IMG/VR virus record: IMGVR_UViG_3300010049_000010
Location: 64,749 to 128,748 of that record
Origin: a virus
Taxonomy: Duplodnaviria > Heunggongvirae > Uroviricota > Caudoviricetes
DNA: 64,000 nucleotides
Direction: 5' to 3' (one strand)
Positions 36,897-51,103 of the stretch are shown piece by piece (the stretch's first letter is position 1; every line of letters begins with the position of its first letter). A program made the translations under genes and the position numbers. The notes under the pieces are model-generated. The model saw nothing but the letters and a program-made list of their open reading frames with translations, was not told the DNA's origin and did not search any database.

Positions 36897-38147
36897 TTAT
36901 GAATTTATGTTCAAACCTACTAACTTCCCAAGTTTAGTGTCTTCTTTAACAAGTTTTAATAAATAAGGGTTTGATTTAGCATCAAAAATATTTTTAGATA
37001 AATCAGTAATTGATCCATCTTTTACTGCCATATTATATAATTCAGTTCCTTTATAAATAATAACAGAACAATAAAAAACTCTATCAAAACCAATTTGTTG
37101 TATCTCTGGGATATTATATCTTACATCATTAATATTGTCCCATGGAAATCCAATTAGAACATTAGAACGAACTTCAAAATCATATTGTTGAAATAATTTA
37201 ATCACATATTCTAAATTATCTAATTTTGTTAGACCTAATTTTCCTACATTTTTCATTGAGTCAAAAGATACTGAATCAAGATTAAGACATACAACACAAA
37301 TTTTTGAATTATTTCTATCACATATTTCACTATATAATCTGACAAGATCTTCATCAACCATAGTAAAATCAATATCTAAAAAATATATTTTGCAATTTTT
37401 TTCTTTAAGAAATTGCATGATAGTCATCCAATATTCTTTTTCAGCCCAAGGCACATCATCTAATATAAGAAACGATTGAGCTCCATTATCTATGTAATAT
37501 TGTAAATCTGAAATTACTTTTTCTATAGATGGATATGACCTAATACAATTTCTTATTAAAGGATTTGGACAAAATACGCATGCATTTTCGCATCCTCTAG
37601 TAATCATAATAGGCATGTGTTTTTCTATTCTTTGAATAGGTTTTAATATATCTAAATCTTTTAAAACATAATTATAAACATTTTCTTTTCTCATTGTATA
37701 CCAATAAGGAGTATTTAGTAAATATTCTTTTTTGTTTTCAGCTTCAATAAGTTCTTTCATCGGAACTTCACCCTCACCCATACAAATACCATCAAAATAT
37801 TGAATAAGTTTTTCTTTTTCTATATTAGAATAATATCCGCCCGCTACAATAAGAGAATTTTTATATCTTTTCTTTATTTTAGTAATAAATTTAATAAGTC
37901 TTTTTTCATCATTTGGAATAAAAGAGAGAGATACTCCTACAATGTCTGGTTTCCAAAAAATGAATTTAGGAGTTCTATATATTATTTCAAATTTGTTAAT
38001 AATATCTGAACAAAATGATTTAATACATTCTAATCCAAAATGAAAAAATTTGATAGAGAAAAAAACTTTATGAAATGAATATGCGAGAAAATGAAATAAA
38101 TCAAATAAAGTAAATTTATTATAATATTTTATTAGCAATATATTCAT
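36897..38147 (-). CDS. B12-binding-domain radical SAM enzyme (paralog A)
   Basis: N-terminal Rossmann-like cobalamin-binding region (…SLIVAGGYY…GEGEVPMKELIE) and a CX3CX2C motif (GCENACVFC). Confidence 0.65.
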   Translation of the reverse strand: MNILLIKYYNKFTLFDLFHFLAYSFHKVFFSIKFFHFGLECIKSFCSDIINKFEIIYRTPKFIFWKPDIVGVSLSFIPNDEKRLIKFITKIKKRYKNSLIVAGGYYSNIEKEKLIQYFDGICMGEGEVPMKELIEAENKKEYLLNTPYWYTMRKENVYNYVLKDLDILKPIQRIEKHMPIMITRGCENACVFCPNPLIRNCIRSYPSIEKVISDLQYYIDNGAQSFLILDDVPWAEKEYWMTIMQFLKEKNCKIYFLDIDFTMVDEDLVRLYSEICDRNNSKICVVCLNLDSVSFDSMKNVGKLGLTKLDNLEYVIKLFQQYDFEVRSNVLIGFPWDNINDVRYNIPEIQQIGFDRVFYCSVIIYKGTELYNMAVKDGSITDLSKNIFDAKSNPYLLKLVKEDTKLGKLVGLNINS

Positions 38148-39360
38148 CTTTATATAACCTTTTAGTTTCTTTGTTTATTACAAGTTTCTTGTATTTAATT
38201 TTGGTCCAAGGAGATACTGCAATAAGTTGTTCATCATCAATTAAGTTTTGTTTTTTAGCTTCATTATAAAGTTGTGTTCCATAATATAATTCTAATTCAG
38301 CTAAATTATAACTATCAATATTATATTCTTTTACAAAATCATTTATTAGTGGGGAATAATCTATATTTTCTTCCCATGGAAATCCATAAATAAAAATAGT
38401 CTGTACTTTTAATTTATATCTTTGAATTAATCTTATTTTTTCTTTAAAAATTTCAAAAGTTCCAGGTTTTCCCGTTTTATTAAAAAATTCCTCTGTCGGA
38501 ATACAATCTATATTAAGAGCAATTGCTGATTTAGATTTATTACAACCAGCATAAGAGTTTAAAATATTTTCAGTAATATAAATAAAATTATTATGTAATA
38601 CATATGCGGTAGCTTTATTTTCAGTTATAAAATCTAAAGTTTCACACCACAATTTTTCATTTTTAAAAGGACTATCATCTATAAAGAAAAAACCTTTAGC
38701 TCCTTTTGATATATAATATTTTATATCTTCTTTTACTTTTTCTATTGATTTCTCTCTATATGGCGGCGAATTATCAAACTTACAATAAATGCATTTTTCT
38801 GGACAATTTTTAGTAATAGTTAAAACTACTTTTTTACCAGTAAATTCTACTGGTTCTAATAAGTCTAAATCTTTCATAATATATGAACTAAAATTAGTTT
38901 TATTTTTAGTGTACCAATATGGTGTTTGTTCTAAGTAAGCTTTTTTATCAGTAGCTTCTAACAATTCTTTAAATGGTATTTCTCCTTCTCCTAAACATAT
39001 AGCATCTACATAATCTATAAATTTTTCTTTCATCACTTCAGCATACATTCCACCTAAAATAATAAGAGAATTAGGAGATCGTTTTCTTATTTTTTGAAAT
39101 ATTTTTATATTTCTATTATGATCATTATGAAGAATAACCATTGATATTGCAATTATATCGTAATTTTTCTTAAACTCAAAAAACCACGGCATATAATCAA
39201 ATATCTTCATAAAAGCAGTTGTATGTTTTTTACAATAAGATTTTATAGTAAGAAGTCCGTGATTCTTAAAAAAATTGTCAAAATTTATAAGTTTGAACAC
39301 TATCTTAAAAAATAAAGAAAGACCATTTTTATATAAGTTTCCTATCATCAATACTTTCAT
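38119..39360 (-). CDS. B12-binding-domain radical SAM enzyme (paralog B)
   Basis: Same architecture as paralog A: …SLIILGGMY…GEGEIPFKELLE plus CX3CX2C (NCPEKCIYC). Confidence 0.65.
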   Translation of the reverse strand: MKVLMIGNLYKNGLSLFFKIVFKLINFDNFFKNHGLLTIKSYCKKHTTAFMKIFDYMPWFFEFKKNYDIIAISMVILHNDHNRNIKIFQKIRKRSPNSLIILGGMYAEVMKEKFIDYVDAICLGEGEIPFKELLEATDKKAYLEQTPYWYTKNKTNFSSYIMKDLDLLEPVEFTGKKVVLTITKNCPEKCIYCKFDNSPPYREKSIEKVKEDIKYYISKGAKGFFFIDDSPFKNEKLWCETLDFITENKATAYVLHNNFIYITENILNSYAGCNKSKSAIALNIDCIPTEEFFNKTGKPGTFEIFKEKIRLIQRYKLKVQTIFIYGFPWEENIDYSPLINDFVKEYNIDSYNLAELELYYGTQLYNEAKKQNLIDDEQLIAVSPWTKIKYKKLVINKETKRLYKDEYIANKIL

Positions 39361-39493: not shown

Positions 39494-42400
39494 ATGTATA
39501 CTTTGCGGGAAAGATATGAACAAATCAAGTTACGAGAAGATACTCACAGTTTGCATGTAGAAGACAGTCTTCTTAAGGGAAAAGATTATATAGAGAGAAT
39601 GCTAGGTTTCTTTAATCATGCTTTAGAGATAGTAGAGGGAAGTGATGATAGTAGTCAACCTAGACCTACAATTAAGTATGATGGAGCGCCTGCAATCGTA
39701 ATGTGGTCACAAAGAGAAGACATCAATGAAAGTTATGGTATTAGCACAAAGTCACTTTTTAACAATAATCCTAAATATTATGGTTCTGACGAGGAAATAG
39801 ACGCCGACAAAGATCGGGCTGATAGTCTTAAAATTAAGATGAAAATGGCTCTTAAATTAGCAGCTGAAAAGATTATTCCAGAGGGTGAGATTTGGCAAGG
39901 CGATTTGCTTTGGACAGCAGGTGATATTAAGAGCATAACTGATGATGGAATAAATTACGTTATTGCAAAACCAAATACTTTAGGATATGCAGCTCCAGCC
40001 GATTCAGATGTCGGTGAGAGAATGAAGAATAGCGATATTGGCATTGTATTTCATACGAGATATAAAGGTCCACTTGATGAGGTTAAACAGTCTAATGATG
40101 TGGATATTTCCGAGTGCAAAAATATACCAGATTGGGCATTTATATTTGACGCGAAGCTTCCCGATTTAAGGGGGAAAGTAACTTTTGATTCTAATGCGTC
40201 TCGTGGACTTAAGAATAGTATTGGAGAATTAAGAAGAAAATGCGCTGATTTAATGGACCACGAAAATTATGATGATTTAGTAAGCAATGAAGATTTTATC
40301 AATTTTTATATGATGACTCTTCAAAACCACAAAATAGACAAAGGTGAAAAAATTGATCCTGAAACTTTTAAGGAAGAACTTCATGATTGGATTAATGTAA
40401 AAATGCACAAAAAATATAATGACTTGAGCAAGTTAAAAACGAAAGCTGGCAGAGATAAAAAGCGAGACACTATTTTATCTACTAGCAGAGAATTACATTA
40501 TATTTGCAGAGAAAATGGAGACTTAATTCACAGTATAGCAGACGCATTATATTGGGCGACTTATATTAAGGGAATTTTGATAGAACAATTTAACAAAGCT
40601 CAAGAATGGATAACCAAGGTTGAAATGAGATCCGGAGGATGGAAGAACACCTCAGGCGAAGGATTCATGATTAGCGATAATGATGGAAAATTTGTTAAGT
40701 TTGTAGACAGATCTGCATTCAGTTATTTTAATAGGTCATCTGAAGTTGTAAAGGGCTTTGAAAGAATAACGGAAAGCGAAGAAAATAAGTGGAATAGGGA
40801 TGAACGCCTTGGCAAAGTTGGTCTTTATGATGATGATGATTGGCATGAAGCAATAGAAGATGATGATGAAGATAAAAATACTGAGGTTGATGAAAATGAA
40901 CAAGTTATTGAAATTGAAACAGAATTATCAGTAGAAGAAATTGAAAATATATGTCTCCGTGTTTTATCTGAAAGTTTAAGAGAAGCTTTTGAGATGGTGG
41001 ATACAGATAGCATTGAAAAAAGATTAAAAGCGATTAAGAGTGATAAATCTGTTACTTGGGTTTGGATAGAAAAAATAAATAAAAAAGCTAAAATTCATTA
41101 CTCAAGAGCAGAAAAAAAACCATCTGGAGGAAATTGGATAGAAGTTAAAAGAAAAGTTGAAATGTCTAATTCATCTAAAAAACCAATTGATAATTCAGAA
41201 AGATTTTTAATTAATAAAAATAATGATCAAAATAAAAATTTATGTTTAATTATAAAAAATATTTTAATTCCGAACATAGAAGACTGGTCTATTTGGAAAA
41301 ATATTGGTTTACAAATAAGTAAATCAGATTCGAGTTCATCTATTTTAGTTAATGTTTGGAAGGACGATGACCCTTTAGGTGGAAATGAAATAGAAGAACT
41401 CTCACTTGGTTTAAAAGGAGTGGATGGTGAAGATTGGTCTTGTAGTGATAATAAAAATAAAAGATTAAGTTTAACTTATAAAAAATTTACAATAAATTTT
41501 AGAAATACAGGTGGAGGAAAAGCAACTGTTATTTATTTTGATAAAAATGGAAACTTAAAATCAATTGAAAAATCATCAAATAAATTTAGTGATTCTGTTA
41601 TTACATCTATACAAGAATCATTAACAGGATTATTTTTAACAATGTCTTTTAATAATGATAAATCAAATTATGCTAAATATGAAAAAATATTATTAACGAT
41701 AGATAATCCTATTTTTGTTAAAAACTTAGTTCAAAAGGATTCAAGCACTTTTAATGTTTCAGGTTTTTCTAATGTTTTAAATTCTTGGAGAGAATCAATA
41801 AAAAATAGTTCTTCTGAAATAATTAAAAGAAAAATTCTAGGTTCATATAAAAAATTATCAAGTGGGCAATGGAAAATAATTCATCCAAGTCTTTATAAAA
41901 CTGACGATTCATATCTTAATTCTATTATTGATTTTAATCCTTATTTAAGTAGACATCTTTTTTCTAATTTTAATTATAAAAATATAATGAGTAGAGATAC
42001 TGCAAATCCTGCAGATATATTTATTATTAATACTGGAACATCATCTTATGATAAATCATTATCTTATGATAGTTTAATTGAAGATTTAAATAATTTAAGA
42101 AAAGATCAATTATATAAAAAAGGTGGAGAATTAAAAAGTTTAACAAGTGTTACCGCATCCACTGAAAATATAAGAGATGCTTTTGTTGCTACACTTAATA
42201 AATATTTTGATGCCGGAATTCTTATTGGAATAAGTTTAAAGAAAACTACTAAAAATGCTAATGTAATTAAATCAGCAACTCATAATTCTTTAAGTGAAAA
42301 TTTAAATAAAGATGATTTATCTTGTTTTGTTTTTAATGATAACAAAAATGATACAATAAAAAGTTTTTCTTTCTCAGGACCACCATATTTAAATAAACAA

Positions 42401-43009
42401 AATAAAAATAATGGAAAAAGTGCTTATTTAATTATAAATGTAGATGGAAATCATCTACATTTAGGAAAAAATATTGCAGAATTAAAAATGGATATTAGAA
42501 TTCCAAGTAGCGGTAATATAAATTCTCCTCCTGTTTCTGAGATAATAATGAATCAATCAGAAGCTAGATTTGGAAAATCTACTGAAGCAGTTAGACTTGT
42601 TTTAAATAATTTTAGAAAAAGATATAAATCAAATATTGCTTCATATATTACAAAATTTTTAAATCAAGAAAATGTTACTTTACGTGAATCTTTAAGATTA
42701 TTTGAAGAAGTTTATAATATATCAAATCGTTTATATGAAGATGAAGATGAAGATGATACTCCAGATAATATTAATTTAAAAGGAAGAATTGATGAAAATA
42801 AAGTGAAAGCTTTAAAAGCAAATTTTTATTTAAAATGTTTAATTCAAGAAATAGGTGGAAGTGTTTCTAATAATAATATAAATTCTTTAATAAAAGAGAA
42901 CTTAACTAAAGTTTTTGCACGTGGCATGAAATATAAGATATATTCATTAAGAACAAAATTATTTGAAAGTTTTAATAATGGTGTAGTAAATTATTTTAAA
43001 ATATTTTAG
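39494..43009 (+). CDS. giant protein (1171 aa): N-terminal RNA/DNA-ligase-like nucleotidyltransferase domain, an acidic linker, and about 600 aa of N/K/S-rich low complexity
   Basis: Motif I TIKYDGAP (KxDG), motif IV GEGFMI and motif V KFVKFVDR. The C-terminal half is compositionally extreme. Confidence 0.45.
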   Translation: MYTLRERYEQIKLREDTHSLHVEDSLLKGKDYIERMLGFFNHALEIVEGSDDSSQPRPTIKYDGAPAIVMWSQREDINESYGISTKSLFNNNPKYYGSDEEIDADKDRADSLKIKMKMALKLAAEKIIPEGEIWQGDLLWTAGDIKSITDDGINYVIAKPNTLGYAAPADSDVGERMKNSDIGIVFHTRYKGPLDEVKQSNDVDISECKNIPDWAFIFDAKLPDLRGKVTFDSNASRGLKNSIGELRRKCADLMDHENYDDLVSNEDFINFYMMTLQNHKIDKGEKIDPETFKEELHDWINVKMHKKYNDLSKLKTKAGRDKKRDTILSTSRELHYICRENGDLIHSIADALYWATYIKGILIEQFNKAQEWITKVEMRSGGWKNTSGEGFMISDNDGKFVKFVDRSAFSYFNRSSEVVKGFERITESEENKWNRDERLGKVGLYDDDDWHEAIEDDDEDKNTEVDENEQVIEIETELSVEEIENICLRVLSESLREAFEMVDTDSIEKRLKAIKSDKSVTWVWIEKINKKAKIHYSRAEKKPSGGNWIEVKRKVEMSNSSKKPIDNSERFLINKNNDQNKNLCLIIKNILIPNIEDWSIWKNIGLQISKSDSSSSILVNVWKDDDPLGGNEIEELSLGLKGVDGEDWSCSDNKNKRLSLTYKKFTINFRNTGGGKATVIYFDKNGNLKSIEKSSNKFSDSVITSIQESLTGLFLTMSFNNDKSNYAKYEKILLTIDNPIFVKNLVQKDSSTFNVSGFSNVLNSWRESIKNSSSEIIKRKILGSYKKLSSGQWKIIHPSLYKTDDSYLNSIIDFNPYLSRHLFSNFNYKNIMSRDTANPADIFIINTGTSSYDKSLSYDSLIEDLNNLRKDQLYKKGGELKSLTSVTASTENIRDAFVATLNKYFDAGILIGISLKKTTKNANVIKSATHNSLSENLNKDDLSCFVFNDNKNDTIKSFSFSGPPYLNKQNKNNGKSAYLIINVDGNHLHLGKNIAELKMDIRIPSSGNINSPPVSEIIMNQSEARFGKSTEAVRLVLNNFRKRYKSNIASYITKFLNQENVTLRESLRLFEEVYNISNRLYEDEDEDDTPDNINLKGRIDENKVKALKANFYLKCLIQEIGGSVSNNNINSLIKENLTKVFARGMKYKIYSLRTKLFESFNNGVVNYFKIF

Positions 43010-43018
43010 GAGATTAAA

Positions 43019-43858
43019 ATGAAAAAGATTAAAGAAATTTTAGCACTAGAATCTCCAATAGTTAACGCTTATAAAAAACAGCTCGACCTAATTAAATCTG
43101 CCGAAAAAAGAAGAAAATTAGAAAACTTACTAAGAACAGCAGCTCATAAAAATATATCTGGTCAAGCAAGCTCAACAGGAAAATATCATCCTAAGTTCGC
43201 TAATTCTGAATTTGGCTTGTCAAAACATACTAAAGCAGTAGTTAGAATTGTTCAAGTTATTTGCACAGTATTTGAAGAATTAGACCCTGATGTTATGATT
43301 ATAGCGGCTATCGCACATGACATGTTTAAATACGGAAGTGAAGACGCAGAACATACTTCTTGGGCTCATGCGAAAGACGCAGGAATGGCTTTACATCAAG
43401 TTGGATTAAAAGATGAAGCTAGACTTGTATATTGTCATATGGGAAACTTTGATAAAAAAGCAGCAGCACCAAAAGAATTAGACGAAAAATTATTACATCT
43501 TGCTGATTATATAGCAAGTCAGAAATTTATTAATATCAATTTTGATAAGGACCATAATTTATTGGAGGAAGATATGAAATCATTTATGCAAATATTTAGA
43601 GAAGCTCATCCATATCATGATAGTAATCGGCCAAGAGATAGTAAAAAACATGTAGGGATGCCTAAGTATATAATTCACAATGATTACTTATTAGAAAAAG
43701 ATGGTAAAGAATATTGTGTAGTAGAATATTTTCCAAGCGCATCATTTAATAAAAAGAAACATCATTATAATCCTACGCCAATTTATTCACATTGGTTAGA
43801 AGATAAAAGACTAATTGCACAAGCAGATAAGGCAGTAAAAGAATATGAAGAGTTTTAA
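43019..43858 (+). CDS. HD-domain phosphohydrolase
   Basis: H … HD motif (IAAIAHDMFKYG); paralog of the ORF at 57229..57810 (shared SSTGKYHP motif). Confidence 0.6.
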   Translation: MKKIKEILALESPIVNAYKKQLDLIKSAEKRRKLENLLRTAAHKNISGQASSTGKYHPKFANSEFGLSKHTKAVVRIVQVICTVFEELDPDVMIIAAIAHDMFKYGSEDAEHTSWAHAKDAGMALHQVGLKDEARLVYCHMGNFDKKAAAPKELDEKLLHLADYIASQKFININFDKDHNLLEEDMKSFMQIFREAHPYHDSNRPRDSKKHVGMPKYIIHNDYLLEKDGKEYCVVEYFPSASFNKKKHHYNPTPIYSHWLEDKRLIAQADKAVKEYEEF

Positions 43859-44717
43859 ACAAATATTACGAGAAGCTATAAATCCCTATGGTTCAGATGA
43901 GGGATATAATGATACTTGCGCAATAGCAATATCTCCTAGAAAAGAAGTTTTTTATCTTTCAGCATACCATCAACATGAAGGACTTTTAGAAAAATATTTT
44001 GATGATTTAGAAGGTGATGAATTATTAAATAAATCTTATGAAACAGGTTGGATAAGAATAAGAGTAAGTCATCATAAAAAGTGTATGATTTTTATAGATA
44101 TTTCTAGATTTAATAAAAAAAATTTAGAAACTCTATGGGACTTCTTTATGGATATGGATGATTTAAATTCTCGATTAACGCATTTTGATTCTGAAGATGG
44201 GGGCCCAAATGAATATAGTCCAAATATAAAAAAATGTGAAAATATTTATATTACTGAAAATTATAATGATAAGATTATTACAATAAAAACAAATTTTAAA
44301 GATATTATAAATTTAAAATTAGAAAATCAAGAATATAGATTAAATAATGTTACTGCAAATATAAAACCACAAGAGTTATTAGATAATTATACCTTTGAAG
44401 AAAGAAAAAAAGAAACTTCAAAATTTAAAATGAAACGTAATTTTATTTATATGTTTGATAAACATAATAATCTTTTAAATAAATGTTTACGTTTTGATGG
44501 TTTTGATTTAAGTTATGGAAGGGGCTCGCGTGATCCATCTAAGTTTACTAAAACATACTTAAATAAAAATCTTTACGAATATTGGTTTGGTGAAGCTTAT
44601 GAAGGCAAAAACGCAGAAAAAGCTGAATATGCAATCTTAAATGATATTAAATTTGAAAATTTAGATGAATTAAGAGATTATTTACAAAATGATTTTGATA
44701 TAAAGGATTTAAATTAA
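43845..44717 (+). CDS. MKSFKQILREA-family protein
   Basis: Shared N-terminal decapeptide. Confidence 0.5.
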   Translation: MKSFKQILREAINPYGSDEGYNDTCAIAISPRKEVFYLSAYHQHEGLLEKYFDDLEGDELLNKSYETGWIRIRVSHHKKCMIFIDISRFNKKNLETLWDFFMDMDDLNSRLTHFDSEDGGPNEYSPNIKKCENIYITENYNDKIITIKTNFKDIINLKLENQEYRLNNVTANIKPQELLDNYTFEERKKETSKFKMKRNFIYMFDKHNNLLNKCLRFDGFDLSYGRGSRDPSKFTKTYLNKNLYEYWFGEAYEGKNAEKAEYAILNDIKFENLDELRDYLQNDFDIKDLN

Positions 44718-45202
44718 TGCGAACATTTAAACAGATATTACAAGAAAGCACTGATGAATGGTTTATGACTAAGAAAAAAGTCTATACAATACAAGGAAGA
44801 ATATCTAATAAAACAGAAAGATATAAAAATAAATTAGAAGGTAATTCTTATGATATGTCTGACCCTCAATATGCAGATGATGAATGGGTAATTTTAAAAG
44901 GTACTGTAGGTGAACTGTGGCCTAATACTTTAGCTAAAACTTGTAGGACATATGGGGTAACTCCAGAAGATTTTGTTGAAGGCGAGTGGATTGACTTAAC
45001 TACACAAAAAGAATACGCATTTACAAATTGGGCCAAAATGAATACTGAACATATTGATTTACCAACAATGCATAATACTATGCATGGAAATCCTGGTAGT
45101 TATCTTGTTTGCACATTAGAAGATAAAGAAAAGAAAAATCCTTGGATAATACATGAAGATGTATTTCCTAACACATATTATACTAGGAATGAAGAAATAT
45201 GA
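44717..45202 (+). CDS. MRTFKQILQE-family protein
   Basis: Shared N-terminal decapeptide. Confidence 0.5.
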   Translation: MRTFKQILQESTDEWFMTKKKVYTIQGRISNKTERYKNKLEGNSYDMSDPQYADDEWVILKGTVGELWPNTLAKTCRTYGVTPEDFVEGEWIDLTTQKEYAFTNWAKMNTEHIDLPTMHNTMHGNPGSYLVCTLEDKEKKNPWIIHEDVFPNTYYTRNEEI

Positions 45203-45828
45203 AATTAACAGAATTACAACATGCTAAAAGAGCAGTTATAAACTTTGGTCGACTAAATCCACCAACAATAGGTCATGTAAAATTAGCTCGAGTTATGGCC
45301 GAAGCAGCAGAAGCATTAGACGCAACACCACTTTTATTTCTTTCTAATTCTTATGATGGAATACAAAGCGGGAAGAGTAAGCCGCCATATAAGAATCCCT
45401 TGCCATTCAGTTCTAAAATCAAATACTGTAAAGATGGCATTGGAGAATATGTGAATATTATTGATTCCAGAGTAATGAACTTATATGACGCATTAGCTGA
45501 AGTTTACAGAGCCGGTTATACTGAATGTTATCTTTTTGGTGGTGATGATAGAGCTGATGATTTTGATAAAGTTAAATCATATAATGGAAGCGAGAAATTA
45601 AGAGACAATCAATTTTTTGATTTTAAGATATTAGAAGTAATAAATGCTGGCAAGCGAGATGAAAATAGTAATAACGTTGAAGAGCAAGCTAGCGCATCAC
45701 TATTACGAAAATGCGTAGTAGATTTAGATTATGAGCGTTTTGAACAATTCGCAGGAACAAAAACTTTAACAGAAGAAATGTTTGAAGAAGTTGCTTTAGA
45801 AATGGGTATTGAATTTGATTGGGAGTAA
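45199..45828 (+). CDS. HxGH/ISSTxIR-superfamily nucleotidyltransferase (NMNAT-like)
   Basis: FGRLNPPTIGH matches the (H/T)xGH motif; SASLLRK matches ISSTxIR. Confidence 0.5.
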   Translation: MKLTELQHAKRAVINFGRLNPPTIGHVKLARVMAEAAEALDATPLLFLSNSYDGIQSGKSKPPYKNPLPFSSKIKYCKDGIGEYVNIIDSRVMNLYDALAEVYRAGYTECYLFGGDDRADDFDKVKSYNGSEKLRDNQFFDFKILEVINAGKRDENSNNVEEQASASLLRKCVVDLDYERFEQFAGTKTLTEEMFEEVALEMGIEFDWE

Positions 45829-45839
45829 AACTAAATAAT

Positions 45840-46448
45840 ATGAAATTATTTGAAAATATTTATAATCAATCATTACAAGAAAATTATAAAAAAACTTGTA
45901 GTAATTGTAATAAAAAATTTATATCAAAGATAGATATTTTTGGGCACACACTTTGTCCAACATGTGAAAAATCGGCCGCGAAATGTAAAGTTTGTGGTGA
46001 AAATATGCATGGTATGAAAGGTTGGCCGGAAGAACGAAAACTTGGAAAATGTTCTAATTGTTGGACTAAACAAGATTTGATTACTATTGGTTGGGAGCAA
46101 GATGAAAAAACTAAACGCGATGCGTTGAAAAATGCTGAAAATACTTTTATTAAATTAGAAATTGATGATGGCGATTTTATAATAAACCCTATGTCTTTCC
46201 CTGGTGGTGATGAATGGACTGAAGTTGATGATGGTGAATTTATTTATGAAGGAACAGTTGCTCAATTTATAGATGATATAACAAGCTACTATGATTACAG
46301 TCGTAACTCAGACAGAGAAGTACAAATATTTACTATATCAAAATCAAAGATTGCTGGATATTGTGTTGCAACACCTATTGGAAAAATATTTTCGTTTCAT
46401 AATAGATATGATGAAACGATTGCTTGTAAAGTTATAGAAAGGAGATAA
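45840..46448 (+). CDS. Cys-rich zinc-binding protein
   Basis: CSNC…CPTC…CKVC…CSNC. The start was moved to the ATG abutted by aactaaataat. Confidence 0.45.
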   Translation: MKLFENIYNQSLQENYKKTCSNCNKKFISKIDIFGHTLCPTCEKSAAKCKVCGENMHGMKGWPEERKLGKCSNCWTKQDLITIGWEQDEKTKRDALKNAENTFIKLEIDDGDFIINPMSFPGGDEWTEVDDGEFIYEGTVAQFIDDITSYYDYSRNSDREVQIFTISKSKIAGYCVATPIGKIFSFHNRYDETIACKVIERR

Positions 46449-46450
46449 TA

Positions 46451-46843
46451 ATGAAAACTTTTGCAGAAATATATGGAAAACCATTAAGAGAAATGAAAGG
46501 GAGAATTGAAAGAAAAGAATTTGAAGATGGAACAGTTTCAACAGATTATTCTCCTGAATGGGAAGAAAGCGATGTGTCTGAATATATAGCTGATCTTCAA
46601 AAAGCTTTACCTATGATTGACCCTGAAAAAGTTGCTTCTGTAGCAATGAATAGTTATGACGACCACTGGGGATTCGGTGTTGAAGACGTTGAAAGAGATT
46701 TTGTAGACATTCTTGAAGAAATGGGTATTGAATACCAAGGCGATAATGCTGGTGATGTTTATGAAGATCTAAATAATGTTACGTCTAAATGGTGGAATAA
46801 AGGTGAAGACGTTGAATATGACGACGAAGAGTATGAAGATTAA
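46451..46843 (+). CDS. acidic hypothetical protein
   Basis: ORF only. Confidence 0.4.
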   Translation: MKTFAEIYGKPLREMKGRIERKEFEDGTVSTDYSPEWEESDVSEYIADLQKALPMIDPEKVASVAMNSYDDHWGFGVEDVERDFVDILEEMGIEYQGDNAGDVYEDLNNVTSKWWNKGEDVEYDDEEYED

Positions 46844-47830: not shown

Positions 47831-50800
47831 ATGGCAGATGGAATTTCAATCGGTAGTGCTGAAACGAGTCAACAACTTAATAGTTTAAATGACGCAATAG
47901 CAGGAACAACGTCTGCATTAGGCGCTGACGGAGCGCTTGCAAATAAAATGGAAGGTATTACTGAAAAACTTAATTCTGTTATTCAAACAGAAGTCACTAA
48001 TCTTCCAACAGAAATACAAAAAGTTTTAGAAGCTCTGTCTGTAAGCACATCTAATTTAGATTCACTTAAAAAACACTTTGAAGATGAAGCTAAAGAAGCA
48101 AATGCTAAGAAACAAAAATTAGCTGATGCAGCTAAAACTGGAAAAAAAGATTTTAAAGACAATGACGTCGCGAAATTGCCAGCTGAAATGTCTGCTGGAT
48201 CACTATTTCTCGGCGGCCAACTTAAATTATTATTAGGTGAAAAATCACTTATATTTGCTGGAATTGCTGATATTGCTAGAACAAGTGATTTAATTTATAA
48301 ACACATAACAGGCGAAGGCAGTAAAAAGAAAGACGATAAAAAAGGAAAAGGCAAAGATGGAAAAGGAGCTGAAACTCCTGGTCTTAAACATAAGGGTGGA
48401 GGATGGGAAGATTTATCTAAAACTTTAATGTCTTTCGCTAAAGCAGCACTTGTAATAAGCATAATGACTCCTGTTTTTTTAATTGGATTGGTAGCTCTTA
48501 AAGTTGCAGGAAAATTTATGGACTCCGCAGCGAAATTATTTCTATATGAGAAAGATGGAAAGACTGCAAAAAATTGGAAAAAAGAACAGAATAAGTTAAA
48601 AGAAGCTTTAAAGTTTACTACTATGCTTCTGGGATTATTTAAAAATTTAATATATGTCGCATTATTTTGTGTGGGAATGTTATTTATAGTTCTTCCAGCT
48701 ATAATAGGCGTATTTGCTGCAATGTTATTTTTACTTGTAATTAAACTTTTTGCTAATGTAGCGACTAAAATGAAATTAGACAAAAAAGTAGTAATAAATA
48801 TAATGTGGGCTAGATTTTTATTCCAACAATTAGTGCTTACTATGTTATTTGCATCGCTTATAATTATATTTATTCTCCCAGCTATATTAGGTATATTTGC
48901 AGCTATTATATTTATGTTGGCATTTAAGTTATTATCTTTGATAGCAGGCAAATTATTAGGTGGAGTATTTAAGTTCTTAATTGTTGTAGTTTTAATGGCA
49001 ATTGCAATGTTGTTTTTCGCAATAACATTATTTATAATGACTAAAGTTGTTACACTTAAGTCAATACTAATCGCTATTGTTTCATTAGTCGCAATTACTT
49101 TATTATTAGCTATTGTAGCTCTTATAGGTTTCGGCGCGACATATGTGCTTCCATTTATTGCAGCATTTGCGTTAGCTTGTATATTTATGGCATTGGGATT
49201 CATTTTATTCGTATTAGCTCTTAAAATACTCAGTTTAGTTACAATAGATTTAATATTAGAATCAGCTGAAAAGATGCTGTTTATTGGTAAGTTTTTCTTG
49301 ATGTTCGCATTATGTATTCCAGTTTTCTTAATTGGTATGTATGCGGCGATTTATTTAATGATCGCATCAGTTGCATTATTTATTGGTATGCTATTTTTAT
49401 TCTTAGCTCTTTTCTTTTTGAAATTAGTTATTGGATCAATAGAGCAATTACTTAAAATGCCAATATCATTTATTCCAGAAGGCGCGCCCGAATGGATGGG
49501 TGGATTAGGCGCAATAGCTATGATTGCGATATTTTTCTTAGGATTATTTTTATTACTACCTGTTTTAATTCTTGCAGTTGTGCCTGCTGTATTATTGGCG
49601 GTAACTTCAATATTATTACTTGTTGGATTTTTAGCATTATCTGGTGCAGTTGCAATGGCTGGAATTGTAGCAAATATTTTTAATGATAATGAAAATATAA
49701 AAAGTGTTGGATTAATAATGAGTTTATTTTTCTTATGCTTGATTCCTGCTGGATTAGCTGCTTTAATTTTACTTCCATTCGCAGTTATTTTCTTAGCTGC
49801 AGCTGTAATATTACTTGTAGCATTTACCGCATTAACGGGAGTAATAGCATTAGCAAAAGTTTTAGCAAAAGGTTTTAGCGCAGATGGGGAATTAGGAACA
49901 AAAGACAAACGAAAAGAAGTTGGTGACGCAATTGCAAGTGTTTTTGGTATGATTGCTAATAAAGATCTTATAAAAGCTGCCCTAAAAGTATTATTTGTCG
50001 GCGCGCCCGTTTTAGCAGCTTCTCTTATGATGTTGGCAATATTTTCTTCAATTGTTGGTTGTTACAGGGGAATAAAAGAAATACAAGAAATACAAGAAAG
50101 TTTAAATCCTGTGGCTGTTGGATTCGTTTTTAAGGCAGTTGAAGATCTTGCAAAAGTAGTTGAGCGAGCTGCTGATATAACAAAAGATGTGGCTTTAAGA
50201 GGTTTAGGAAAATTTAGACTAGGCATTGGCGGAGTTATAGAAGCTATAAATGGTATTGTTGACGTTATTATTAAACTTGCTAATTTTGAGAAAGACGCAA
50301 GTGCATATGGTTATGAAGGTGGTGGTGCGGCTTTAATAAGAGAAGCTTGTAGTCAACTTCAATTTATTATTAGAGAATTTTTTGGTCTTAATGCTGATGG
50401 AACTAAAGATGATTCTAATCCTTTTTCTATTATGAATGTTTTTGGAGCAATCGGGAAAATAAAAGGCGGAGATTTAAAAACAGTAAATGCGTTAGCTCCA
50501 CTTGCTGAAGGTTTGGGCGCTATTGTTGATCTTGTTATAAAAGTAAGAGATGTTAATGATGTTGGAAAAGCTAAAGAAAATATGATAGAAATATTTGAGT
50601 TTACGCAATCATTAAGTAGACTAACAGGAGTTTTAACTTCAGGAGCTCTTAAAAAGGGTGACACTCCTAGAATTTTAAAACGTGTAAATGAAGATATTAT
50701 GCCTCATATTCCAACTTTCTTAGATAAACTTCAAGAAATTTCTGAGAAAGCTAGGGGAATTGATTTAGTTGAATTACAACTTCAAGAATGTTTAGTAACA

Positions 50801-51103
50801 CCATTAGTAGATTTAGGCACTAAAAATATAGGTAGAGAAATAGATAAAATATCTCAATCAATTGGAAAACTTAATAGAGAATTAAGTAAAATGACGAGAG
50901 AAAATGGAAACGTAATTGGTTCATTAGGAAACATTGGGGCAGCGGCTATATTATCTTTAAAAGGAGATAGCGGTGGTGGATCTAGAGGTCCTGACCAAAA
51001 TACTAATTTATTAAGAATGATTGAACAACACTTAAGATTAATTTGTGATGCGACTGAAGAAAATAATAAGACAGAAAATGACCATACAAGTTTTACAGCG
51101 TAG
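47831..51103 (+). CDS. tape-measure-like giant protein: N-terminal coiled-coil and about 20 TM helices
   Basis: 1090 aa with a repeated ILPAILGIFAA hydrophobic module; it sits upstream of the M23 peptidase gene. Confidence 0.45.
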   Translation: MADGISIGSAETSQQLNSLNDAIAGTTSALGADGALANKMEGITEKLNSVIQTEVTNLPTEIQKVLEALSVSTSNLDSLKKHFEDEAKEANAKKQKLADAAKTGKKDFKDNDVAKLPAEMSAGSLFLGGQLKLLLGEKSLIFAGIADIARTSDLIYKHITGEGSKKKDDKKGKGKDGKGAETPGLKHKGGGWEDLSKTLMSFAKAALVISIMTPVFLIGLVALKVAGKFMDSAAKLFLYEKDGKTAKNWKKEQNKLKEALKFTTMLLGLFKNLIYVALFCVGMLFIVLPAIIGVFAAMLFLLVIKLFANVATKMKLDKKVVINIMWARFLFQQLVLTMLFASLIIIFILPAILGIFAAIIFMLAFKLLSLIAGKLLGGVFKFLIVVVLMAIAMLFFAITLFIMTKVVTLKSILIAIVSLVAITLLLAIVALIGFGATYVLPFIAAFALACIFMALGFILFVLALKILSLVTIDLILESAEKMLFIGKFFLMFALCIPVFLIGMYAAIYLMIASVALFIGMLFLFLALFFLKLVIGSIEQLLKMPISFIPEGAPEWMGGLGAIAMIAIFFLGLFLLLPVLILAVVPAVLLAVTSILLLVGFLALSGAVAMAGIVANIFNDNENIKSVGLIMSLFFLCLIPAGLAALILLPFAVIFLAAAVILLVAFTALTGVIALAKVLAKGFSADGELGTKDKRKEVGDAIASVFGMIANKDLIKAALKVLFVGAPVLAASLMMLAIFSSIVGCYRGIKEIQEIQESLNPVAVGFVFKAVEDLAKVVERAADITKDVALRGLGKFRLGIGGVIEAINGIVDVIIKLANFEKDASAYGYEGGGAALIREACSQLQFIIREFFGLNADGTKDDSNPFSIMNVFGAIGKIKGGDLKTVNALAPLAEGLGAIVDLVIKVRDVNDVGKAKENMIEIFEFTQSLSRLTGVLTSGALKKGDTPRILKRVNEDIMPHIPTFLDKLQEISEKARGIDLVELQLQECLVTPLVDLGTKNIGREIDKISQSIGKLNRELSKMTRENGNVIGSLGNIGAAAILSLKGDSGGGSRGPDQNTNLLRMIEQHLRLICDATEENNKTENDHTSFTA

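Follow-up and report, generated by a model that had tools for sequence, protein, structure and literature searches.

A phage DUF6267 protein fused to an AT-rich copy of its neighbour-gene product, with a putative nucleotidyltransferase role

The 1171-aa protein described here, encoded in a 64,000-nucleotide stretch of DNA from a tailed phage (the whole stretch analysed, hereafter the window), is a fusion of a DUF6267 domain with a second protein that we have named X. The C-terminal region is homologous to X, which in related phages is encoded by a separate gene beside DUF6267, and the protein is therefore a DUF6267-X fusion. We assign a probability of roughly 0.5 to the full explanation, in which DUF6267 is a divergent covalent nucleotidyltransferase, the region fused to it is a copy of X that has drifted toward AT, and DUF6267 has X and a HIGH-motif cytidylyltransferase-like enzyme as its conserved functional partners; the HD hydrolase encoded immediately downstream would be a lineage-specific insertion and not a conserved partner. 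A sequence-only reading of this DNA had described a ligase-like protein with a low-complexity tail. It missed two points: that what looks like a tail is a copy, in fused form, of a conserved neighbouring gene, and that the conserved partner of DUF6267 is the cytidylyltransferase-like enzyme, not the HD hydrolase.

The 1171-aa ORF lies where that reading had placed it (Table 1), as do the motifs KYDG (aa 61-64), EGFMI (389-393) and KFVKFVDR (399-406) and the acidic segment (446-461). Identical copies of the protein occur on three contigs from independent assemblies. The C-terminal frame has no stops in 751 codons of 24% GC DNA (P ~1e-36), compared with 24-139 stops in the other five frames. The C-terminal part is thus truly coding, and the ORF is not an artefact.

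Table 1. Positions in the window of the DUF6267-X fusion, its parts and the genes discussed with it
Feature	Positions	Strand	Evidence
1171-aa ORF: DUF6267, acidic linker and X-family region (gene fusion)	39494..43009	+	ORF call
DUF6267 (PF19782), aa 17-413, putative covalent nucleotidyltransferase	39542..40732	+	Pfam E 3.1e-52, 178.6 bits
Motif I-like KYDG; K61 = candidate nucleotidyl-accepting lysine	39674..39685	+	K61, D63, G64, P66 100% invariant (87 sequences)
Motif III-like IWQGDLL	39890..39910	+	Q135, D137 100% invariant; strand 132-141 in AF2 model
Motif IIIa-like GIVFHTRY	40040..40063	+	G183, H187, T188, Y190 100% invariant; predicted strand 182-191
All-helical insertion of about 145 aa, aa 233-377, between motifs IIIa and IV	40190..40624	+	
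Motif IV-like EGFMI (aa 389-393) and motif V-like KFVKFVDR (aa 399-406)	40658..40711	+	E389, G390, K402, R406 100% invariant
Acidic linker, aa 421-500, 37.5% D+E; holds DDDDWHEAIEDDDEDK (40829..40876) and tail motif LSESLRE	40754..40993	+	
Poorly conserved N-terminal part of X-like region, aa 501-701	40994..41596	+	Loose alignment to first ~140 aa of X family
Core X homology, aa 702-1171	41597..43006	+	HMM, hhalign, BLASTP
HD-domain phosphohydrolase, 279 aa; neighbour, not conserved partner	43019..43858	+	PF01966 E 1e-6; phrog_5889 E 4e-27
HIGH-motif (..PPTIGH..) cytidylyltransferase-like gene, 209 aa; conserved DUF6267 partner	45199..45828	+	BLASTP
Paralogous HD gene in RNA ligase / kinase cluster	57229..57810	-	

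The X family as defined here comprises five proteins of 517-618 aa (P0122-P0125 and L133), none of which has a Pfam, PHROG or PDB match. An HMM of the family built without the window sequence gave the C-terminal region 25.3 bits, against 8.8 for the best of 2000 shuffles; when the sequence of the closest relative (L004) was added, and the window again left out, the score was 44.1 bits (best of 2000 shuffles, 6.2). Alignment with hhalign gave E 4e-5 at 70% probability and BLASTP gave E 1e-4 and 3e-5. The window region was the only non-family match among 673 ORF segments. Eight colinear motifs are common to the window and the family, running from residue 702 to the last residues; the core motifs are TSIQESLTGLFLTM, FSNVLNSWRESI, WKIIHP, NPADIFII (42005..42028), LIGISLKK (42221..42244), LKMDIRI, ARFGKS and NYFKIF-stop. 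All six sequences compared agree at 23 invariant positions, and the shared features include a [KR]D..[ND][PK][AS]D[IC] ... GISLK signature and a Y.K.[YF] C-terminal end. The window copy differs from the other members in being fused to DUF6267, about 150 aa longer on its N-terminal side, only about 22% identical to them and far more AT-rich.

X directly adjoins DUF6267 in L001-3, L016, L133 and L135-137, and in L004 the two are fused or split. Known DUF6267 proteins are about 400 aa long or carry an N-terminal cytidylyltransferase-like domain, whereas the window protein has a 750-aa C-terminal extension, for which no match was found in any GenBank phage. The linker keeps a tail motif, LSESLRE, that matches the C-terminal ends of stand-alone DUF6267 proteins (..YLKSLES-stop, ..FLQSLRE..). 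In the explanation we favour, the fusion arose by read-through beyond the former DUF6267 C-terminal tail, with insertion of the acidic linker.

The Pfam match to DUF6267 is well above the gathering threshold (178.6 bits versus 27) and covers model positions 2-371 of 376. As in stand-alone proteins of about 400 aa, such as gp127 of Pelagibacter phage HTVC008M and S-CAM9 gp098, the whole family model is matched, and all family-invariant residues are kept. Homologues number 399 in the protein database and at least 586 stretches in IMG/VR; the domain is found in the majority of marine T4-like phages (Kyanoviridae) and also in some jumbo phages. No paper in the literature searched mentions the family. 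Over 87 homologues of 24-62% identity, all of the 100%-invariant residues sit in a set of motifs that includes KxDG, QGD, GxxxHTxY, EG and K..R. Motif I, KxDG with its invariant lysine (K61, D63, G64), is present as a pattern match only, and candidate motifs III, IIIa, IV and V were assigned by eye on predicted strands of an AF2 model with pLDDT 67 overall and below 50 at motifs I, IV and V.

We think it most likely that DUF6267 is a covalent nucleotidyltransferase of the ligase/capping type, though a divergent one. The sequence-only reading had called this domain ligase-like, and its motifs and their invariant residues make that plausible, not proven; sequence and profile methods gave no link to ligases. 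K61/D63/G64, Q135/D137, H187/Y190, E389/G390 and K402/R406 fall on predicted strands in canonical order. T4 Rnl1 ranks second and fifth in a Foldseek search of the PDB with the DUF6267 model, and the first match outside the family in BFVD is an iridovirus kinase/ligase. Searches of Pfam ligase families returned nothing at E up to 10, and a profile search of PDB sequences was empty. Comparison by hhalign with the window's RNA ligase, its DNA ligase and a 34-sequence Rnl profile gave E 0.06-0.22, which is not significant; the alignment that pairs the EGF of DUF6267 with motif IV (CEGYV) of the RNA ligase in the window was likewise not significant. That the phage already encodes a DNA ligase and an RNA ligase also counts against a ligase. 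DUF6267 departs from T4 Rnl1, T4 Rnl2 and T. brucei REL1 in showing no significant sequence or profile similarity to them, in its helical insertion between motifs IIIa and IV, in a motif V reduced to one invariant Lys plus an Arg in place of KxK, and in an additional invariant H..H.E cluster at the N-terminus; its activity is putative.

DUF6267 might instead be something other than a nucleotidyltransferase, with the KxDG/EG/K pattern a chance likeness and with another enzymatic or a structural role. We consider this the less probable reading, although one to be taken seriously. Two observations oppose it: the motifs, which follow the canonical order along predicted beta strands, hold the family's most conserved residues, and RNA ligases were the first alpha/beta or non-family matches in each of three independent structure searches. 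If DUF6267 is a nucleotidyltransferase, the attack on a nucleotide donor would come from K61 of KxDG and yield an enzyme-NMP intermediate; the NMP would then be transferred to an acceptor phosphate, most likely the 5'-phosphate of a nucleic-acid end, before sealing. We infer both the nucleotidyltransferase chemistry and the nucleic-acid substrate. X may act as a substrate-binding or end-processing module. Its invariant E708, D841 and S914-L-K916 fit the E ... D ... (D/E/S)xK pattern that PD-(D/E)xK nucleases carry on an alpha-beta-beta-beta-alpha-beta core, which would make X a candidate for that group. The AF2 model, at pLDDT 33, was too poor to show such a core, Pfam and PDB searches with X gave no hit, and X is not similar to the PDDEXK_1 gene in the window.

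The cytidylyltransferase-like gene is homologous to the N-domains of Kyanoviridae "cytidyltransferase" genes (BLASTP E 7e-26 to 2e-16), which belong to CTP_transf_like (PF01467), with or without DUF5824, and are neighbours or fusion partners of DUF6267 across lineages. It is 52% identical to its homologue in the closest relative. A CTP_transf_like gene lies at most 3 kb from DUF6267 in 46 of the 80 IMG/VR loci and adjoins it in HTVC008M, Melnitz, DLP_6, S-CAM9 and a Nonlabens contig, and the two are fused in a group of 663-670-aa proteins and in S-PM2. Unlike the Kyanoviridae genes, the window copy is short, lacks DUF5824 and is separated from DUF6267-X by three lineage-specific genes. These three, the HD gene and ORFs of 290 aa (43845..44717) and 161 aa (44717..45202), have no counterparts in relatives, and they therefore look inserted.

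The same finding bears on the proposal that the 1171-aa protein and the HD hydrolase form a second, tethered system for healing and sealing RNA or DNA ends, mirroring the cluster at 57229..60628. Much of the description behind this proposal was accurate. The HD gene begins 9 nt after the 1171-aa ORF and has an AGGAG site of its own; it is truly paralogous to the HD gene in the other cluster (29% identity, E 1e-21); and that cluster holds an RNA_ligase (PF09414), an AAA_33 kinase and the HD gene. The N-domain carries ligase-type motifs, and a Zeta_toxin/AAA_33 kinase lies near DUF6267 in HTVC008M and in 7 of the 80 IMG/VR loci. The window block thus recalls the RNA repair cassettes of phages and bacteria, which reportedly include T4 Pnkp with Rnl1 and the HD-Pnk type healing enzymes studied in the Shuman laboratory, in that a ligase-like gene is followed by an HD gene paralogous to that of a canonical cluster of Rnl, P-loop kinase and HD. 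It differs from them in that no kinase adjoins this HD gene, that the conserved partner of DUF6267 is a HIGH-motif nucleotidyltransferase, and that the HD pairing is unique to this genome: none of the 80 IMG/VR loci has an HD gene beside DUF6267, nor do L001-L008 and L016, which include the closest relatives (L004, L001-3 and L016). Because the adjacency recurs in none of these loci, we regard a second heal-and-seal system as improbable.

The composition of the C-terminal part was correctly described as very AT-rich and free of obvious repeats. GC3 falls along the ORF from 0.28 (aa 1-420) to 0.11 and then 0.05, and N+K+S rises from 22.6% in the N-domain to 34.7% in the C-terminal 670 aa; the enrichment to about 35% is explained by the extreme AT bias (GC3 0.05-0.11). 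The same break in GC3, from 0.28 to 0.07-0.08, occurs in L004, and the GC3 of X in L001 is similar to that of its neighbour gene. The term "low-complexity tail" is not supported, however. The hydrophobic fraction is 0.334 in the C-terminal part and 0.340 in the N-domain, mean 40-residue entropy is 3.5-3.6 bits versus 3.8, only seven SEG-like 12-mers occur in the C-terminal 670 aa, and no tandem or dispersed repeats were found there beyond AT-rich chance matches. These measures led us to reject a low-complexity, disordered or fibrous tail. As judged from its sequence, the region is composition-biased yet ordinary-looking, with detectable homologues, and since it is a fast-evolving, very AT-rich copy of a neighbour-gene protein we take it to be a real domain of the folded type. 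The case has a lesson for annotation: in an AT-rich phage, a stretch rich in N/K/S that passes for "low-complexity" can be a normal domain masked by mutational drift.

The same composition might reflect a remnant of X decaying under relaxed selection, with DUF6267 alone functional. In GC3 (0.084) the X region is the lowest, and in N+K+S the highest, of the 53 ORFs in the window, its divergence is at the orphan level (whole-database searches return only the protein itself), and a frame change beside an N base splits the copy in L004. A decaying gene would hardly be expected to keep a 751-codon open frame in DNA so poor in GC, the 23 positions invariant in the family (the D..D and GISLK signature among them), which are kept in both the window and L004, and the C-terminal Y.K.[YF]-stop, and we judge decay to be quite improbable.

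Least likely of all is that the protein is virion-associated or injected, with its N/K/S-rich part a flexible or fibrous region: the sequence does not support a fibrous or disordered virion tail, given the normal hydrophobic content, near-normal entropy, conserved polar motifs and lack of repeats, and the gene neighbours here and in relatives belong to replication and nucleotide metabolism (DNA ligase, gp32, RNase H, clamp loader, UvsX, helicase). The very low confidence of the AF2 model of the C-terminal part (pLDDT 33 for the X region) might seem to favour flexibility; it is expected, because the alignment held five sequences. The sole indirect hint is that the partner cytidylyltransferase was found in the S-CREM2 virion proteome, whose authors report such proteins to be frequent in cyanophage virions and also caution about carry-over of abundant proteins (PMC10665884).

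Among the T4-like cyanophages, pelagiphages and related phages examined here, nearly all have DUF6267 and its cytidylyltransferase-like neighbour. The DUF6267-X fusion in the window and the cytidylyltransferase-DUF6267 fusions in other lineages tie three uncharacterised proteins into one pathway and suggest a concrete chemistry, a putative K61-dependent nucleotidylation. As a speculative extension, which we hold to be doubtful, DUF6267, the HIGH-motif enzyme and X might together constitute an unrecognised three-component system of marine T4-like and some jumbo phages. DUF6267 would then represent a new clade of lysine nucleotidyltransferases that modifies or joins nucleic-acid ends, using a nucleotide or a dinucleotide supplied by the HIGH-motif enzyme. 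X would be a fast-evolving module for target recognition or end processing, and an arms race with the host would account for its orphan-level divergence and its repeated fusion and separation. If the K61-dependent nucleotidylation itself is confirmed, the ligase/capping superfamily would gain a new branch, and a function could be assigned to a core pair of genes in ocean viruses of great abundance.

The 1171-aa protein is a fusion of an N-terminal DUF6267 domain with a member of an unnamed protein family, here called X, since its C-terminal part is homologous to X and X adjoins DUF6267 in related phages. The C-terminal region is certainly coding: its frame contains no stop in 751 codons, and at an expectation of 0.10 stops per codon the probability of such an open frame is ~1e-36; the other five frames have 24-139 stops. 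GC content falls from ~0.35 in the N-terminal third of the ORF to ~0.22 over the last 2 kb, and GC3 falls from 0.28 (aa 1-420) to 0.11 (aa 501-800) and 0.05 (aa 801-1171). An assembly chimera as the source of this break is ruled out, because the identical protein is encoded on three contigs of independent assemblies (ENA ERZ27264051, 328 kb; Logan SRR10512954, 27 kb) and the closest relative, locus L004, has the same break.

Coordinates of the fusion and of the other window features discussed here
Feature	Position	Strand	Remarks
ATP-dependent DNA ligase	34694..36064	-	PF01068 + OB domain
B12-binding radical SAM gene	36897..38147	-	416 aa
B12-binding radical SAM gene	38119..39360	-	413 aa
1171-aa ORF	39494..43009	+	DUF6267-X
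DUF6267 (PF19782) domain	aa 17-413	+	Pfam E 3e-52
HD gene	43019..43858	+	PF01966 E 1e-6; phrog_5889 E 4e-27; 9 nt after 1171-aa ORF
Cytidylyltransferase-like gene (..PPTIGH..)	45199..45828	+	homologous to N-domain of Kyanoviridae 'cytidyltransferase', E 7e-26 to 2e-16
1090-aa ORF	47831..51103	+	no Pfam match
HD hydrolase	57229..57810	-	RNA-repair-type cluster 57229..60628
510-aa protein	57815..59347	-	no family; GC3 0.13; RNA-repair-type cluster
AAA_33/Zeta-toxin-like kinase	59358..59891	-	RNA-repair-type cluster
RNA ligase	59891..60628	-	PF09414; closest to jumbo phage ligases, e.g. Atu_ph07, Phosso, SCTP-2

Homology to X surfaced only through the neighbouring genes of relatives. The C-terminal 701 aa (aa 471-1171) retrieved only themselves in a word-indexed search of the whole database and in a full phmmer search of 1.84 billion representatives, and no confirmed relative of the C-terminal part was found in IMG/VR. 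In an abundant group of relatives with DUF6267 proteins of 663-670 aa (loci L001-L003, 56% identical), a 546-aa protein without a Pfam domain is encoded 80 nt after DUF6267; this protein and its relatives P0122-P0125 define X. In L004 the DUF6267 protein is 63% identical to ours within the domain and has a 215-aa extension. The next L004 ORF overlaps its end by 14 nt, with a change of frame within a few bases of an assembly N (L004 2454..2500); this split of X may be a sequencing error or real.

BLASTP with the window C-terminal part gave E 1e-4 to the L004 ORF and 3e-5 to a protein of another relative, L016, and hhalign against X gave E 4e-5. An HMM built from P0122-P0125 only scored the window sequence at 25.3 bits, rising to 44.1 bits once L004 was added, against maxima of 8.8 and 6.2 bits for 2000 composition-preserving shuffles. 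Among 673 stop-to-stop segments from the window and eight loci, the X HMM matched only the 1171-aa ORF (E 4e-7) and the L004 ORF. The alignment of the window sequence with X is colinear over eight motifs (TSIQESLTGLFLTM / TEIQEAITALLLTM; ..SW..S.; H[PY]; RDTANPADIFII / KDNIDKSDIVLYF; LIGISLKK / LMGISLKQ; MDIRI / LDIRT; FGKS / FGNA; and a terminal NYFKIF-stop / PYLKLY-stop), and 23 positions are invariant across all six X sequences. A metagenome scan added two members, one partial (L134) and one of 618 aa that stands alone, head-to-head with a DUF6267 gene (L133), and gave the universal signature [KR]D..[ND][PK][AS]D[IC] ... GISLK.

X lies beside or is fused with DUF6267 in the window, L004, L001-3, L016, L133, and L135-137, and is not beside it in L017. 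The HMM scan detected no X homologue in the Kyanoviridae loci L005-L008, so X is confined to a subset of DUF6267-bearing phages. The C-terminal tail motif of the stand-alone DUF6267 proteins (..YLKSLES-stop) is still visible in the fusion as LSESLRE at aa 491-497, past the inserted acidic stretch DDDDWHEAIEDDDEDK (aa 446-461), which the sequence-only reading had correctly placed. In L004, GC3 falls from 0.28 to 0.08 and 0.07, matching the window, whereas X in L001 (0.196) does not differ from its neighbour gene (0.200), so it is in the window/L004 lineage that X has drifted towards AT and diverged fast.

That reading had described the C-terminal part as a low-complexity tail, AT-rich, rich in Asn, Lys and Ser, and free of obvious repeats. 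The composition and the lack of repeats hold: N+K+S is 34.7% in aa 501-1171 compared with 22.6% in aa 1-420, and among the 53 window ORFs compared the C-terminal part has the highest N+K+S (0.33) and the lowest GC3 (0.084), while searches for tandem and dispersed repeats returned only short AT-rich chance matches. Low complexity does not: the hydrophobic fraction is equal in the two parts (0.334 and 0.340, respectively), mean 40-residue entropy is 3.5-3.6 bits compared with 3.8 in the N-domain, and the 670 C-terminal residues contain only seven SEG-like 12-mers. AT pressure raises Asn, Lys, Ile, Ser, Phe and Tyr. The apparent tail has this ordinary explanation, the bias being an effect of extreme AT pressure on codon choice and no sign of disorder. 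GC3 differs about fourfold among window genes (0.08-0.34; e.g. 29738..30382, 43845..44717, 57815..59347) and is lowest in those that match no family or lack homologues, as would be seen if genes that are accessory or evolve fast drifted towards AT. A scan for promoters and terminators found 46 sites where 47 were expected, and so was uninformative.

DUF6267 relatives number 399 in the protein database, with at least 586 matching stretches in IMG/VR. Homologues of the window protein occur in 90 GenBank phages at 27-29% identity, all confined to aa ~3-440; the carriers include T4-like cyanophages, Pelagibacter phage HTVC008M, Methylophilales phage Melnitz and Stenotrophomonas phage DLP_6. The literature searched mentions neither DUF6267, PF19782 nor DUF5824. 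The ligase-like motifs first recognized by eye are where they were reported (KYDG, aa 61-64; EGFMI, aa 389-393; KFVKFVDR, aa 399-406). In an alignment of 87 sequences with 24-62% identity to the window protein, the residues K61, D63, G64, P66, K86, Q135, D137, N161, Y165, G183, H187, T188, Y190, N278, K359, G382, E389, G390, K402, R406, F409 and N413 are 100% invariant, so the most conserved positions include the candidate counterparts of ligase motifs I, III, IIIa, IV and V, arranged in canonical order. A cluster of histidines and an acidic residue (H18, H21, E23; at least 95% conserved; consensus THLEHxED; window 39542..39565) precedes these motifs and may be a metal site; we know of no counterpart in known ligases.

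The 1171-aa protein has the motif pattern of the ligase superfamily but no significant profile similarity to it, and the ligase-like reading of the N-domain is plausible. Comparisons by hhalign of DUF6267 with the window's RNA ligase, with its DNA ligase, and of the 87-sequence profile with a 34-sequence Rnl (RNA ligase) profile gave E 0.06-0.22, none significant, with the EGF motif repeatedly aligned onto the EGY motif IV of ligases. Neither phmmer nor profile searches of PDB sequences with DUF6267 gave a match, Pfam held no ligase link at E up to 10, and PHROGs, NCBIfam and PADLOC returned nothing for the ORF. An AF2 model of the N-domain (10-sequence alignment, pLDDT 67, pTM 0.60) places the motifs on beta strands and inserts a helical segment of ~145 residues (aa 233-377) between IIIa and IV; near motifs I, IV and V it is unreliable, with pLDDT falling below 50. 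The model is supported by a BFVD fold search, in which the first eight matches are family members (TM up to 0.60) and the next annotated match is an iridovirus polynucleotide kinase/ligase (E 0.07). Foldseek against the PDB found nothing significant; T4 Rnl1 ranked 2 and 5 (E 0.8-1.0). A ligase/capping-type nucleotidyltransferase fold is our best hypothesis for DUF6267, with a probability of roughly 60%, and we infer that the protein works like an Rnl-type ligase, although the structural evidence behind this predicted biochemistry is weak. Since a DNA ligase is present as well, the phage has two recognizable ligases besides the DUF6267 protein.

X has no Pfam or PDB match, and an AF2 model of the C-terminal part (5-sequence alignment, pLDDT 32.7) was unusable. 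An E...D...SxK pattern in X resembles PD-(D/E)xK nucleases; the searches yielded nothing further in favour of this candidate identity.

Genes 39494-46843 form a tight block on one strand. The HD gene following the fusion is a paralogue of the HD hydrolase gene in the RNA-repair-type cluster, as had been noticed, but the proposal that it forms a second heal-and-seal system with the ligase-like protein is unlikely, there being no conserved cassette. No counterpart of this HD gene was found in the relatives' loci, nor any HD homologue near DUF6267 in 80 IMG/VR loci. The HD protein is not conserved and is therefore outside the core system; it may be a local recruit to end healing. The ORFs 43845..44717 (290 aa), 44717..45202 (161 aa), 45819..46448 (209 aa) and 46451..46843 (130 aa) likewise have no counterparts in those loci. 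PDB sequence searches gave no substrate class for the HD protein or for the cytidylyltransferase-like protein.

The latter is the conserved partner. Its window copy is 52% identical to the product of an L004 gene, and a CTP_transf_like gene lies beside or near DUF6267 in HTVC008M, Melnitz, DLP_6 and S-CAM9, within 3 kb of it in 46 of 80 IMG/VR loci, and separated from it by a 4-nt gap on a Nonlabens genome contig. In the 663-670-aa group, L016, L135-137 and phage S-PM2, the cytidylyltransferase-like domain is fused ahead of DUF6267. The HIGH-motif nucleotidyltransferase, DUF6267 and X are thus linked as three proteins, because two different fusions join them. In some Kyanoviridae, DUF6267 and the cytidylyltransferase are separated by a Zeta_toxin/AAA_33 P-loop kinase (L005 7766..8428, HTVC008M gp129; seven of the 80 IMG/VR loci), an arrangement that would suit a pathway with a kinase step acting on polynucleotides or small molecules.

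The tandem, paralogous radical SAM genes are transcribed divergently from the fusion, have unusually low GC (0.23-0.24; GC3 0.12) and weakly match the PADLOC candidate defence family PDC-M51A. The 1090-aa ORF has a syntenic L004 counterpart of more than 1148 aa in the same relative position, following LPD3 and a 128-aa HNH-like gene; LPD3/HNH-like are 55% identical between the two phages. The source contig (k141_7313039 of ERZ27264051) is 328 kb, which makes this a jumbo phage. Relatives of its DUF6267 gene are found on contigs that reach 494 kb and carry T4-type replication genes, and in MAG bins named Succinivibrionaceae, Coprovivens and Anaeroplasma; this points to the gut or rumen, and not the sea, as the habitat.

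The genomic setting is one of replication and nucleotide metabolism, with a DNA ligase here and gp32, RNase H, a clamp loader, UvsX and a helicase in relatives. This favours an intracellular nucleic-acid enzyme over a virion fibre and, together with the entropy and hydrophobic fraction, tells against the earlier suggestion of a fibrous, virion-associated tail. The cytidylyltransferase has been reported, with caveats, in a cyanophage virion proteome (PMC10665884). In the manner of RNA ligases, DUF6267 would form a lysyl-NMP intermediate at K61 and then pass the NMP on to an acceptor phosphate, which would most plausibly belong to the 5' end of a nucleic acid. The HIGH-motif enzyme would supply or regenerate the nucleotide donor or pre-activate the substrate, and X would bind or process the substrate; its rapid evolution suggests that the interface is specific to a host or target. 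Neither the databases nor the literature searched describe the DUF6267-X fusion, the X family or the three-way linkage. DUF6267 itself occurs very widely, and the hypothesis can be put to a direct test.
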